19,040 bases of DNA from a virus (lineage: Duplodnaviria; Heunggongvirae; Uroviricota; Caudoviricetes), in IMG/VR virus record IMGVR_UViG_2526164604_000026, positions 1 to 19,040 of that record. The stretch is one strand, 5' to 3'. Below are positions 12,001-18,000 of this stretch, one piece after another. How positions within the stretch are numbered: the first letter of the stretch is position 1; each line of letters begins with the position of its first letter. A program made the position numbers.

Positions 12001-15000
12001 AAGCCGCCAGTGTGGGCAAAGTGCACAAAAGGCGTGTATCCGTCTTACTGGGAGGAATGGAAAAAAGTCAGGGAGGTGGTAAAAGTTGCCTGTCCGGAGT
12101 GTGGAGGGAAGGGGGAGGTTTCCACCGCCTGTAAAGATTTTCGTGGGCGCGGTGTTGCCATTCATCGTGAAGAGTCGGTAAAACGTGGTATGCCTGTTAT
12201 CAGAGACTGCCAGCGTTGTGGTGGTCGTGGCTATGAAAGATTACCTTCAACGGAGGCATTTAATGCCATATGTAATGTAACCGATGCCATATCTCTTGAT
12301 ACATGGAAAAAAACAGTTAAACGTTTTTACGATACGCTGGTGGTGCAGTTTGATATTGAAGAAGCATGGGCAGAACAACAACTGAAAAAGGTGACCAGAT
12401 AGCTTTGTTGATTTTTCCCGAATCTGTGGTAAATTTGCCCTAACGATGGGCGTTTTATGCCTGACGTTAGAAGATTTTTTACACCCGTCGCCAGGCGGGT
12501 TTTTTTATGACTGAAATCACGCCAGTACAGTAAACGCGCTGGTGGTTGTGAATACCGGTCTTTCTGCTTGCTGGCTTTTTCGACAAGAGTTATTGGTGTG
12601 TCACGTTAACCGGAAAAAGGAAAGTTTGAGAAACGCGATCTGGCACAGGCGGTGATTAACGCCGCATACCTGGTGGCCTGTGCAGATGGTGAATGTGAGG
12701 CTTCCTAGAAAGCGAAGATCGAACAGGTACTGCGTAATCAGCCAGCGCTGTCCGCGTTTACGTCAGAAATTAATGCGATTAGCGCAACCATTATCGGTCA
12801 GCTGGATACGAACTTTAAAACTGGTCGTCGTGCGGCGTTACGTGAGATCGAGGATGTGAAACACGATACGCGTGAAGCGGAAGATGTGCTGGATGTGGCG
12901 GTGGCCATTGCGGAGGCAGACGGCGAAATTGAGCCGGAAGAGCGCAAGGTGCTGGAAGAGATTGCCGGTGTTCTGGGTCTTCGTCTGGAGAATTACCTGT
13001 GACGGTAAAACTGCGTCTGGCTGTGGCTGCACTCCTGCTGTTTCTGGTGGTGATGGTGGATTTCACCAGCAGAATCATGTCGGTGCTGGCGGATGGGGTG
13101 CTGGTCTGCGGCATTGTGGTATTGCTGTGGCCGGTGATAAAAAGAAACAGCCTGCATAATGCTTGATTTTTTTGTTTACTGTTTATTAAAAATACTACTG
13201 CATGGTGAATCCCCCTGTGCGGAGGGGCAATCAGCAACCAGGTATATGGGATAATCGCGGATTCAGGTGCTGGTACTGAATTCACCGGGAGGCACCCGGC
13301 ACCATGCTTTGCCACAAAAGTGTTATTTCTGTTTTTCTCAAACTATCATCGTTATCCCTTTATTTCCGGCTGCGCATGGCGCGGCCTTTTTTTTACGACC
13401 AGCCACTGGCAGATGGTCATCCTGTGATTTGATTCCGGTTCCGGCTTTTTAACTCTGTTCCTGTACACGGGAGAAATTCGATGTCGATTAAACATTATGA
13501 TGTTGTCAGGGCGGCGTCGCCGTCAGATCTTGCGGAAAAGCTGACACACAAACTGAAAGAGGGCTGGCAGCCGTTTGGTAGTCCTGTGGCCATAACCCCT
13601 TATACCCTGATGCAGGCGATTGCCGCGGAGGGGGATGTGACCACGCCAGTGGTTGTGCCCGGCACGGGGGATGGTGGCTATCCGGGAGTGGTCACCACGG
13701 AGCCAGATTATTACTACGTTATTCCACTGGCCGGGCAGTCGAACGGCATGGCTTACGGTGAGGGGCTTCCTCTGCCGCAGACATATGACCGTCCTGACCC
13801 GCGTATAAAGCAACTGGCTCGTCGCAGCACAGTGACGCCGGATGGCGCTCCCTGTAAATATAACGACATTATTCCGGCAGACCACTGTCTGCATGATGTA
13901 CAGGACATGAGCCGTCTTAACCATCCGAAAGCTGACCTGTCGAAAGGTCAGTACGGAACCGTGGGGCAGGGGCTGCATATTGCCAAAAAGCTGCTGCCGT
14001 TTATACCGGCGAATGCGGGTATTCTTCTGGTTCCGTGCTGCCGTGGTGGTTCAGCTTTCACCACCGGGGCAGATGGAACATACAGTGACGTGACCGGTGC
14101 CTCAGAGAGTTCTACCCGCTGGGGTGTGGGCAGGCCGCTGTATAAGGATCTCATCGGTCGTACAAAAGCCGCGCTGGCAAAGAACCCGAAAAATGTGCTG
14201 CTTGCCGTGGTGTGGATGCAGGGGGAATTTGACTTTGACGGAACGCCAGCAAATCACACAGCCCGTTTTACAGAAGTAGTGGAACAATATCGTACGGACC
14301 TTGCAGATATGGTGGGACAGTGCGCTGGTGGTTCTGCTGACGGTGTTCCCTGGATATGTGGAGACACAACTTATTTCTGGAAGCAGAAGAGCGAATCCAC
14401 TTACCAGACGGTGTACGGCAGTTACAAAAACAAAACGGAAAAGAATATTCACTTTGTGCCGTTCATGACCGATGAGAACGGAGCAAATGTCCCGACGAAC
14501 AAACCGGAAGAAGACCCGGATATTCCGGCATCAGGATATTACGGTGCGGCCTCCCGGACGTCGGCAAACTGGACGTCAGCAGACCGTGCGAGCCATTTCA
14601 GCTCATGGGCACGCAGGGGGATTATTTCTGACCGTCTTGCCTCAGCGATTCTTCTCCATGCAGGACGGACGGCTGAACTGGTGGGTGGGGAACAGGTTGT
14701 GATGCCGCCGGATGAGAAGCCGTCACCGGACACACCATCAACACCGTCAACGGACGGGAAATCAGTGACAACGCTGCTTTATTACCGTGCAACAGAGTCA
14801 GGTGGTTTACTGAATCCGCAGGGATGGGGAGCTGAAGGAGGGCGTGCATTGGTAGTTGATGATGCAGGTGCTGCAGGAGGTAAGGCGCTGAGGTGGACCA
14901 AACAGACAGGAAGTTCCTCGTGGTTTATGCAGCATGATGCCGGTAATGGCGCAGACCTGCTGGAGAAGGGCGGGCTTATCAGTTGTCGTTTTAAAGTTGA

Positions 15001-18000
15001 TGGCACACTGACAGCTAATCAGTACGCACTGGCGCTGTACTGGCCGGTTTCTTCACTGCCTCAGGGCGTCACACTGGAAGGTAATGCCGGTCATAACCTG
15101 CTGGCGTCGTTTTACGTACAGAGCGATGCCACAGACCTTAATGTGATGTACCACAAGGGAAATGCTGGTCAGAACACGAAGCTGGGGTCATTCGGCGCAT
15201 TTGATAACGAATGGCATACGCTGGGCTTCCGTTTTGCCGGTAACAACAGTATTGAGGTGACGCCGGTCATTGATGGTAAGGACGGGACGCCGTTCATGCT
15301 GTCACAGTCACCGGTCGGCACGTTTACGGCAGACAAATTGCGCGTGACCGATATCACTAGCGGTGCGACATATCCGGTGCTGATTGAAAGTATAACAGTG
15401 GAAGTGAATAACCCGTAAGCAGGAAAAAAAGGCCGCCGGGGCAGGGAAAACAAGGAGCCAGAACCGGCGGCAAATGTCGTTATATCCAAAGCAAAACATG
15501 CAGGACACTTTTTTAACCAACAGGTATTAACGATGTCAACACCATATCAATAACCGGGAGGGATAATGAGATTTGTACAGCTTATTTTATTGTATTTCTG
15601 CACGGTGGTGTGCACGTTATATCTGGTAAGTGGCGGGTATAAGGTTATCCGGAACTATATACGCAAAAAGATTGATGCCGCGGCGGCGGAAAAAATCAGC
15701 GCCAGCCAGTCAGCCGGAACAAAACCCGAAGAGCCTCTCATTTCGTAGCAACTTTCTTAACAACACCTTTCAACGAGAAAATCCCATGTCAGAAATAAAA
15801 TCTCTGGTCACTGCTGAAGCAGTGAAGGACGTCCTGCGCTCTGAAGAAGTCAGAAGCGCACTGAAACAGCAACTCCGCCAGAATCTTGAGGCGCGTCTTG
15901 ATGCTGAAGTGGATGCCATTCTGGATGAGCTGCTGGGGGGACCGGCTGCTCCTGAGCCTGAAGACGGCGCGGGTGACAGTGCTGTTTCAGATGGCGTTGT
16001 GTCTCAGCCTGACGGTAGCAGTGAGCCTCAGCCTGGCGGCGAAATGATGATGTAACCATACGCAGGGGCTGTCGGTGTGAGCTGATGCCCCTCCTGTTGT
16101 TGTGAGCTTCCGGATTGCGGGAGACGGGGTATGTACCAGATGGAAAAAATCACAACGGGTGTGTCATACACCACGTCAGCGGTGGGGACGGGATACTGGT
16201 TACTGCAGCTGCTGGACAAAGTCTCTCCGTCCCAGTGGGTGGCGATAGGTGTGCTGGGGAGTCTGCTGTTTGGCCTGCTGACGTATCTGACTAACCTGTA
16301 TTTCAAAATCAGAGAGGACCGTCGTAAGGTGGCGCGGGGAGAGTAGTCGATGAATAAACAATACGAACTGGTTGTAAAATGAATATTTCTAACTGAAAAA
16401 ACGTTCCATGAGGTAAGAAAAGGTCACAGGCAATCAATAACAGGACGTGATGAAAGACCCTTGCATTTGTGCGCTTTCTCTTTAGATAGCAGCAGATACT
16501 GAAAATCTGAGTTGTCGGGGAGTCAGGGATACAGCTGTGCAAGAGTTGGTCATTGTGATTCCATTGAAATCCTGTATGCCATGAAGGGCAGGATTTTATG
16601 GCTACCTGAGCTTTGGTGATAGTAAGTTGAAAATTCGCATTTTTTGCTGACATGCGTAACGAGAATCCCATAAGCAGGGAGGACTTAATTCTTCATTAAC
16701 CCATGCGTTGATATTATGTTTCAGCCGTTGAAGCATCAGCGGTGTTAATGTTGTGGTAATAATATCCAGCGTTTTATGTGAGATCTTACCGTAAGGGTCT
16801 GCAAGAATGCTGCTTGTTGCTTCGTTATTATCTGCCATCAGAAGAAGTAACTCTGATTTAACGTTTTCTGTCATTAGTTGTAAAAATCTTCTGCGCAAAC
16901 TTTCTTTACTGTTCATTTATATGGCTTCATTTGTTGTAATCTGCTGCGTCTCAAGGGATATGTTTATGAGAGCGACCATGAGTGTTGGATTATATACCTA
17001 ACATATCAAGGGATTAGAAATCGATAAATCCCCATGAACGAAAAAATAAAATACGGCCTGTCGGCTGCCGTTCTGGCGCTGATTGGTGCAGGTGCTTCTG
17101 CGCCTGAAATCCTCGACCAGTTTCTGGATGAAAAGGAAGGTAACCACACCACGGCATACCGTGATGGTGCGGGGATCTGGACCATCTGCCGTGGTGCCAT
17201 TCTGGTGGATGGTAAGCCTGTTATTCCTGGCATGAAGCTGTCAAAGGAAAAATGCGACCGGGTTAATGCCATCGAACGTGACAAGGCGCTGGCATGGGTG
17301 GAGAAAAACATCCGGGTGCCGCTGACCGAACCCCAGAAAGCGGGGATCGAGTCATTCTGTCCGTACAACATTGGCCCCGGTAAGTGCTTCCCGTCGACGT
17401 TTTATAAACGAATTAATGCAGGCGATCGAAAAGGTGCCTGTGAGGCGATTCGCTGGTGGATTAAGGACGGTGGCAGAGACTGCCGTATCCGTTCAAATAA
17501 TTGCTACGGTCAGGTCTCACGGCGTGACCAGGAGAGCGCGCTGGCGTGCTGGGACATCGACAGATAGCAGAATATTTTCCTGAAAAATGACGTTGGCCAA
17601 CGCGGGTGGATAACACGAAATCCTGAAAACTGGTAAAACCTAAGTGAATAAAAGTAAAAACCCCGTTTGTTGGCAGCAAGCGGGGTTTTGTGTTTTCTGA
17701 CCTTGAGTAAGGCAAGGGAGAAATTATGGGTAGGGAGGTACTTTCCCTGTGAGGAAGTATAAAAGATTCTTTCTGAGGTTGTCCATTATGAAAGGCATTG
17801 AAGTGGAGACGCCAGCCAGTCTGGATTTAACAAGAGCGGCAGCTTTTGCCATTCGTATTGTGGCCATTGCTGTTCTGGTCTGGGCAATCCGTTGGTGGTG
17901 ATATGAACCGTGTTCTGTGTGTGGTTATCATTGTCCTGCTGGTGGCCTGTGGTGCGCTTAGTCTGGGGCTGAATCATTACCGTGATCACGCCATCATCTA

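Follow-up and report, generated by a model that had tools for sequence, protein, structure and literature searches.

Chromosomal NanS of Escherichia coli is an esterase of the SGNH type II class that uses Ser19 and His301 for catalysis, has no catalytic Asp, and forms its oxyanion hole from a Gly and Gln18 (PMC9063846, citing Rangarajan et al. 2011). Prophages of O157:H7 strains carry related genes, nanS-p. The nanS-p alleles of strain EDL933, from both Shiga toxin (Stx) prophages and non-Stx prophages, are active and support growth on 5-N-acetyl-9-O-acetylneuraminic acid (Neu5,9Ac2) (PMC8065619, PMC10462455, citing Saile 2016), and their products remove acetyl groups from mucin sialic acids that carry one, two or three O-acetyl groups (PMC8065619, PMC10462455). 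z1466, the nanS-p gene of phage 933W, belongs to the genes with the strongest induction by norfloxacin (PMC8065619). An arrangement of pasD/STnc100, a sialic-acid esterase gene, pasA/pasC and holin-lysozyme genes has also been reported, and fewer than 3% of the chromosomal PasA small RNA (sRNA) genes, which flank the esterase, adjoin stx (Zhu, Shabalina and Storz, bioRxiv 2026). Here we analyze a 19,040-nt stretch of DNA from a Caudoviricetes virus (IMG/VR record IMGVR_UViG_2526164604_000026, positions 1 to 19,040; hereafter the window), in which an earlier note had placed a NanS-p-like sialate O-acetylesterase gene within a Stx-phage-like late region that lacks stx. The comparison with the described systems indicates a nanS-p gene that is preceded by an sRNA gene of the STnc100 family and lies in a mosaic lambdoid prophage whose stx slot is filled by another, decaying cargo cassette.

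The open reading frame encodes a three-domain NanS-p

Judged from its sequence, the 645-aa open reading frame (ORF) that the earlier note had singled out is a real NanS-p sialate O-acetylesterase gene, and all the sequence hallmarks of NanS-p that we tested were found, namely the catalytic domain, the DUF1737 domain, the lectin-like domain and the position between Q and the lysis genes. The Pfam search shows an N-terminal DUF1737 (PF08410) at aa 4-50 (E=3.3e-15), which is present in the nanS-p product and absent from chromosomal NanS, a sialic-acid-specific acetylesterase domain, SASA (PF03629), at aa 83-275 (E=4.9e-11), and the C-terminal lectin-like domain DUF6645 (PF20350) at aa 494-611 (E=7e-71). 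A Pro/Ser/Thr-rich linker connects the SASA/SGNH catalytic domain with the lectin-like domain. Sequence comparison with the PDB gives the same picture, with aa 73-391 matching E. coli O157:H7 NanS/YjhS (3pt5, E=2.5e-119) and aa 429-644 matching the crystallized C-terminal domain of a phage NanS-p (6yp6, E=9.5e-97). No NCBIfam model matches the esterase.

The GQSN block lies at aa 85-88 (nt 13733-13744). Alignment to NanS and 933W NanS-p, which had been proposed as a check, shows that the SGNH catalytic residues are conserved: in the HMMER alignment, Gln18, Ser19 and His301 of NanS correspond to Gln86, Ser87 and His372 of the window protein. The four aromatic residues proposed to bind sugar (named in PMC10462455) are also kept, as Y515, Y520, Y545 and F615. 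No signal-peptide-like hydrophobic stretch is found in the first 60 residues, where the Kyte-Doolittle average over 11 aa reaches at most 0.95. The gene starts with an ATG, and the CGGGAG sequence ahead of the start codon is invariant in 5 of the 5 aligned phages.

The protein is 100% identical to its EDL933 copy (WP_000023170.1), and the gene has 100% nucleotide identity in strain FORC_044 and is at least 99% identical in 306 records. Some form of nanS-p occurs in 2,399 of 5,426 complete E. coli genomes, in up to 15 places per genome. The gene call and the functional label are correct, and both have been published before (Saile 2016, as cited in reviews; Zhu, Shabalina and Storz, 2026).

The stx slot holds a different cargo cassette

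As shown in Table 1, nanS-p lies between Q and the holin, lysozyme and Rz genes, as it does in 933W and BP-4795, and its placement in the Stx-phage position stands. The reported lack of stx and tRNA genes is likewise borne out. A tblastn search with StxA1, StxB1, StxA2 and StxB2 (E-value limit 10) finds no credible stx in the window, the best match having E=0.19, and the sole Stx match touching the interval from Q to the esterase is a chance match to StxA1 at 12373-12453 (E=7.1). ARAGORN finds 0 tRNA genes in the whole window, and the Rfam search likewise finds no tRNA. The arrangement of a Stx-converting phage is absent, with no stxA or stxB between Q/pR' and nanS-p and no ileZ-argN-argO tRNA genes.

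The slot is not empty and is occupied by a tciA pseudogene and an intact tciB gene that lie just to the left of the interval considered in the earlier note. The pseudogene is 97.6% identical to aa 18-143 of JLK-2012 TciA (tblastn); Pfam TerB matches the part 3' of its stop codon, RefSeq annotates an "internal stop" in EDL933, and the intact ORF of about 143 aa of a TciA/TerB-family protein is not found in the window. The tciB product (RefSeq WP_000216629.1) is 74.5% identical to JLK-2012 TciB. In JLK-2012, an intact tciAB pair fills the corresponding slot. JLK-2012 and the Stx1 phage BP-4795 share the genus Marienburgvirus, and the slot of BP-4795 holds stx1AB. The stx and tciAB genes seem to be alternative cargo, and deletion of a toxin cassette is the less likely history, because tciAB occupies the slot in JLK-2012 and no stx fragment is found in the window. 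Of the proposal that the element had lost or never had the toxin cassette, the absence of stx holds, while the contents of the slot favor alternative cargo over loss.

The description of the element as a Stx-phage relative holds for the late-region module only. The window Q shows no similarity in tblastn to Q of 933W, BP-4795 or JLK-2012, the early region is Rac-like (racR, ydaT and a DnaT-like gene), and DNA homology to Stx phages is found only from the sRNA onward, with just about 20-23% of the window covered by such phages. The most parsimonious reading is a mosaic lambdoid prophage that has the sRNA, nanS-p and lysis module in common with Stx phages and carries a different, decaying cargo cassette.

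Table 1. Features of the window, with positions counted from its first letter
Feature	Position	Strand	Basis or remark
Integrase gene	1-1119	-	Window starts exactly at the integrase stop codon
hok/sok type I toxin-antitoxin locus	9377-9701	+	hokD ORF annotated in identical EDL933 sequence
Late-gene antiterminator Q, 273 aa	11581-12402	+	PF03589 Antiterm, E=7.8e-49
Candidate late promoter pR' and pause-like element	12408-12450	+	TTGATT-N16-TGgTAAATT ... TAACGATGGG, read from sequence
Intrinsic terminator, candidate tR'	12483-12507	+	Hairpin of 7 pairs (5 G-C), then T7
tciA (TerB-family) pseudogene	12622-13002	+	First 17 codons missing; in-frame TAG at 12706-12708
tciB, small membrane protein DUF3927, 55 aa, intact	12999-13166	+	PF13064, E=4.3e-17
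STnc100-family sRNA, 167-nt type	13174-13340	+	Rfam RF02076
Strong intrinsic terminator between sRNA and nanS-p	13368-13394	+	Hairpin of 8 pairs (7 G-C), then T8
Shine-Dalgarno sequence GGGAGA of nanS-p	13469-13474	+	6 nt 5' of the ATG; read from sequence
nanS-p, sialate O-acetylesterase	13481-15418	+	ATG-initiated ORF, 645 aa
DUF1378 ORF	15566-15748	+	Pfam, E=5.8e-40; RefSeq annotation; between nanS-p and holin
DUF826 ORF	15786-16055	+	Pfam, E=1.2e-34; RefSeq annotation; between nanS-p and holin
P21-type holin	16131-16346	+	Pfam PF04971
Lysozyme	17034-17567	+	Pfam PF00959
Rz	17846-18370	+	Pfam PF03245
PerC-family regulator gene, start	18834-19040	+	Runs off the end; preceded by a stretch of 34-35% GC

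An STnc100-family sRNA gene directly precedes nanS-p

The interval upstream of nanS-p had been described as holding only a terminator and non-coding sequence. The terminator is real, and next to it lies an sRNA gene that the covariance model of the STnc100 family matches over its full length (model positions 1-206), scoring 101.6 bits where the gathering score is 47 (E=1.6e-21). The minimum-free-energy fold of the single sequence 13174-13396 has an uninformative z of -1.74, and it is the covariance model that supports the family assignment. Homology to the sRNA EvrS, whose start has been mapped, places the probable start of the transcript near 13201, and the transcript may run on to the terminator at 13368-13394.

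The analysis of every comparison locus having a nanS-p gene places a member of the STnc100 family directly 5' of nanS-p in six loci (933W, BP-4795, PPyecE_EH1910, JLK-2012, PV15-279 and EDL933). In 933W, it lies between stx2B and nanS-p (207.7 bits) and is followed by the anti-sRNA AsxR on the opposite strand; in BP-4795, it lies between stx1B and nanS-p and is followed by an AgvB-like anti-sRNA that scores just above the gathering score. It follows tciA-tciB both in PPyecE_EH1910, where AgvB comes next, and in JLK-2012. The remaining two loci are a second O157:H7 prophage in PV15-279 (1159741-1177814; L008) and CP-933N of EDL933 (NZ_CP008957.1, 1620000-1668000; L009). No AsxR or AgvB anti-sRNA is found antisense to 13341-13480 in the window, where a permissive Rfam search gives only a chance match to asX2 (25 bits against 70), and in the alignment both the window and JLK-2012 have a different sequence here.

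Dozens of Stx1a phages share a 31-nt core (13198-13228) with 100% identity, about 400 bp 5' of their nanS-p, and the sRNA core is found in 2,846 of the 5,426 genomes, with the full 307-nt interval in 646 genomes. STnc100 overlaps the Hfq-binding sRNA EcOnc27/sRNA103 downstream of stx2B (PMC12711010), and EDL933 has 11 transcribed STnc100 copies, one of them positive in Northern analysis (PMC5331693). The late-region cargo slot is modular: it starts with either stx, with or without tRNA genes, or tciAB, followed by an STnc100/EvrS-type sRNA, in some cases an anti-sRNA on the opposite strand, nanS-p and the lysis genes. Given this order, the seemingly non-coding stretch 5' of nanS-p is therefore an sRNA gene.

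The sRNA is a paralogue of EvrS

EvrS (Esr023) is a 154-nt sRNA, mapped by rapid amplification of cDNA ends (RACE), that was assigned to CP-933N, with z1789 on one side and "a novel esterase (z1793)" on the other, and it represses adherence dependent on the enterocyte effacement locus (LEE) via z2269 (PMC11774850). The window sRNA belongs to the same Rfam family and has the same place directly 5' of nanS-p, and its 5' two-thirds is nearly identical to EvrS. However, the window has GCAACCAGG at 13234-13242 where EvrS has GCGAGTAGG, a 4-nt change in the proposed seed that falls within the stretch mutated to test the pairing of EvrS with z2269. In addition, the window sRNA is without EvrS's own terminator, has a different 3' end and is of the 167-nt type, not the 191-nt type.

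The published EvrS oligonucleotides point to another locus. In the window, the 3' RACE primer matches exactly at 13206-13226, 40 nt of the Northern probe match exactly at 13240-13279 with the remainder of the probe unmatched, and the forward primer for quantitative PCR (qPCR) has 2 mismatches. The qPCR reverse primer and 5' RACE primer 2 have no match in the window within 4 mismatches, and 5' RACE primer 1 has only an unrelated site with 4 mismatches, at 7508. At L008, which lies at 1.16 Mb in PV15-279, every EvrS primer has an exact match, as does the z1793 reverse primer, the z1789 forward primer has 1 mismatch, and the z1793 forward primer has no site within two mismatches. The gene order at L008 is a helix-turn-helix regulator, tRNA-Ile/Arg/Arg, a 191-nt STnc100 copy and a 616-aa esterase, and the Rfam start of this copy plus 30 nt equals the published offset of the transcription start (STnc100_4 start, 1641323; EvrS transcription start, 1641353). 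Resequenced CP-933N (L009) bears the window-type locus with the 167-nt sRNA.

The possibility that the window sRNA is EvrS itself was considered and rejected, since the primers and probe match exactly at the paralogous locus and only partly in the window. We regard it as a paralogue of EvrS, because the seed, the 3' end and the terminator differ and the primers fit the L008-type locus. The published placement of EvrS (CP-933N, z1789-z1793, single copy) fits the L008-type locus and not resequenced CP-933N, which indicates that either the 2001 assembly of EDL933 is chimeric at CP-933N or laboratory stocks differ. This mismatch is possibly useful to researchers working on EvrS. Whether the sRNA next to this nanS-p is a functionally distinct paralogue, with another seed, another 3' end and no antisense AsxR or AgvB partner, is a speculative proposal that we regard as rather doubtful. 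If it were true, each sRNA-esterase module of O157:H7 would link foraging for mucin sugars to host targets of its own, and the published description of EvrS as a LEE regulator present in one copy would have to be revised.

Late-operon signals and flanking regions

Q of EDL933 is annotated in RefSeq as "antitermination protein" (WP_000762929.1). The candidate pR' downstream of it has an extended -10 element and scores below the threshold of the consensus scan; together with the TAACGATGGG motif, it presumably resembles the pause/qut region of lambda pR'. The stretch 12479-12623, which contains the candidate tR', is 90% identical to the sequence 3' of Q in PPyecE_EH1910. The terminator between the sRNA and nanS-p looks by eye like the second terminator found ahead of nanS-p in Stx phages (GGCTGCGCAACTGCGCGGCC-T5), although the two occupy different columns in the MAFFT alignment.

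Between the holin and lysozyme genes, an AT-rich 643-bp segment (16380-17022, 36-42% GC) replaces ydfR of EDL933 CP-933N. Its reverse-strand ORF (16602-16916, 104 aa) has no Pfam match, and the matching segment of PV15-279 carries a 90-aa reverse-strand hypothetical protein in RefSeq (WP_000138558.1). Of the 629 matching records (628 genomes), 621 have the segment with an identity of at least 99%, the L008-type prophage among them.

Positions 1-16379 of the window are 99.5% identical to the prophage beside potC in E. coli O157:H7, including EDL933, and at least 80% of the window is found in 248 complete genomes. The potC prophage of resequenced EDL933 (NZ_CP008957.1) also bears the type III effector genes nleL and espN, and O-island 50 (OI-50)/CP-933N is the island encoding nleL and espK (PMC12962677). 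Because it carries nleL and espN, we identify the EDL933 potC prophage by gene content as OI-50/CP-933N; a literature search for CP-933N together with potC gave no result. The esterase gene of the window probably corresponds to z1793.

At the left end, an excisionase gene and a truncated 3'-5' exonuclease pseudogene follow the integrase gene on the same strand (window 1-1856). Within the hok/sok locus, Rfam places sok RNA at 9377-9551 (116.9 bits). At the right end, 17900-19040 matches strain FRIK1989 and not EDL933, and all 69 codons present of the PerC-family gene are identical to FRIK1989 WP_001303878.1.

Proposed function and its alternatives

We consider it highly probable (roughly 0.9) that this NanS-p allele is a prophage-borne three-domain esterase that is expressed late in dependence on Q, is released by lysis and serves the use of sialic acid by the host. 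The layout and the literature suggest that full expression of nanS-p would need Q-mediated antitermination in an induced subpopulation, and that Q-dependent read-through in spontaneously induced cells would carry transcription past two intrinsic terminators. The esterase would reach the gut lumen by lysis of the induced cells, with the holin, lysozyme and Rz as the proposed release route, and would there strip the 7/8/9-O-acetyl groups from free and mucin-bound sialic acids. Surviving lysogens and sialidase-producing neighbors could then use N-acetylneuraminic acid, to the benefit of the surviving clonal population. This copy would be one of many redundant paralogues per genome, and an independently transcribed STnc100/EvrS-family sRNA would travel with nanS-p as a module. 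We take Z3342, a protein of CP-933V, to be the NanS-p of that prophage. Z1466, Z3342 and Z1793 have been found in culture supernatants of enterohemorrhagic E. coli, Z3342 among the top ten by abundance (PMC12962677); that study calls none of the three an esterase, and Z1793 is "a novel esterase" in PMC11774850. The term fitness moron, used for this gene in the earlier note, agrees with the published reading (PMC8065619, PMC10462455, citing Saile 2016).

Several observations weigh against the proposed function. The activity of this allele would follow from its 100% identity to the EDL933 protein and from second-hand reports, and we infer lysis release and Q-dependence from gene order. The z1793 primers of PMC11774850 match a different, 616-aa paralogue, so that z1793 is only a probable number for this allele. 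Lysogens grow on Neu5,9Ac2 without deliberate induction, and such growth could come from terminator read-through or from another promoter. The prophage in the window may be defective, with a truncated exonuclease gene and a decayed tciA, and its Q and lysis genes may fail to fire.

Three other explanations have to be weighed against a role in host nutrition, and none of them is favored by the evidence. The esterase might mainly serve the phage, either released at lysis or bound to the virion, by deacetylating bacterial O-antigen or capsule under the guidance of its lectin-like domain and thereby helping progeny to reach their receptor. Such a role is raised explicitly in PMC8065619, which notes that there is no experimental evidence either way, and it is consistent with the conservation of nanS-p beside the lysis genes in the late operon of functional Stx phages and with a carbohydrate-binding-type C-terminal domain in a protein that has no signal peptide. 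It nevertheless appears unlikely, as the catalytic domain has 87% identity with its counterpart in 933W NanS-p and is strongly NanS-like (E=2.5e-119; the substrate of NanS is Neu5,9Ac2), growth and mucin-deacetylation phenotypes are reported for the lysogen (PMC8065619), and many copies are retained in defective prophages that do not produce virions.

More unlikely still is a history in which the element descends from a Stx phage whose stxAB and tRNA genes were deleted. The Storz-lab preprint weighs repeated loss as a possible reason for the rarity of stx beside chromosomal esterase copies, the sRNA, nanS-p and lysis module is common to Stx1 and Stx2 phages, and the end of stxB lies only 74 nt (933W) or 78 nt (BP-4795) from the sRNA by annotated coordinates (75 nt in PMC12370729). 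Against this, neither a stx remnant (tblastn) nor a tRNA gene is found in the window, the slot is filled by the decayed tciA and tciB, which stand intact at the same place in JLK-2012 and PPyecE_EH1910, and neither Q nor the early region is related to its counterpart in 933W or BP-4795, with Stx-phage homology only from the sRNA onward. Least probable of all, and hardly to be expected, is that nanS-p is a silent relic in a cryptic prophage that contributes nothing. The neighboring tciA pseudogene, the truncated exonuclease gene and the many redundant copies in O157:H7 would agree with such decay, but the ORF is intact with every functional residue conserved, 306 records are at least 99% identical in DNA, and all tested EDL933 alleles are reported to be active (PMC8065619).

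The discovery value of a Q-dependent, host-serving NanS-p at this locus is small. The non-Stx NanS-p copies of O157:H7, their activity and their proposed role in the use of O-acetylated mucin sialic acids are published, and hundreds of genomes encode the RefSeq protein to which this one is identical. What is gained is a tidier annotation of the late-region cargo slot, and mild novelty lies only in the finding that the sRNA is a paralogue of EvrS and in the mismatch between the EDL933 assemblies.

Comparison with known systems

The window protein resembles 933W NanS-p (z1466/L0105; NP_049502) in its length of 645 aa, its three-domain architecture and the position of its gene between cargo/sRNA and lysis genes, and the catalytic Gln-Ser-Asn and His as well as the four aromatics of the C-terminal domain are conserved between the two. 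The overall identity is about 72-74%, being highest in the SASA domain (87%), lower in the C-terminal domain (68%) and lowest in the N-terminal 60 aa (51%), and of the 9 SASA positions that are variable among Stx2a-phage alleles, 6 differ in the window protein. In contrast to 933W, the region upstream of the gene is without stx, tRNA genes and the antisense AsxR gene. NanS-p of the Stx1 phage BP-4795 is 77% identical to the window protein.

With chromosomal NanS (YjhS, 3pt5), the window protein shares the SGNH type II domain, the Ser-His dyad and the oxyanion-hole Gln. However, NanS is a single-domain protein (the 3pt5 chain has 337 residues) encoded in the chromosomal sialic-acid regulon, whereas the window protein has an additional DUF1737 and C-terminal lectin-like domain and is encoded in the late operon of a prophage. 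This C-terminal domain aligns end to end, over aa 429-644, with that of vb_24B_21, the NanS-p of Phi24B (6yp6), a jelly-roll, lectin-like putative carbohydrate-binding module, to which it is about two-thirds identical with the aromatic site kept.

JLK-2012 (O55:H7) and PPyecE_EH1910 differ from the window in that their tciA is intact (143 aa) and their esterase is a 617-aa variant, which in JLK-2012 is only 58% identical to that of the window, and JLK-2012 has three upstream tRNA genes. Both nevertheless have the same order of tciA, tciB, STnc100 sRNA, nanS-p and lysis genes, and the intergenic stretch 13181-13562 of the window is 96% identical to JLK-2012.

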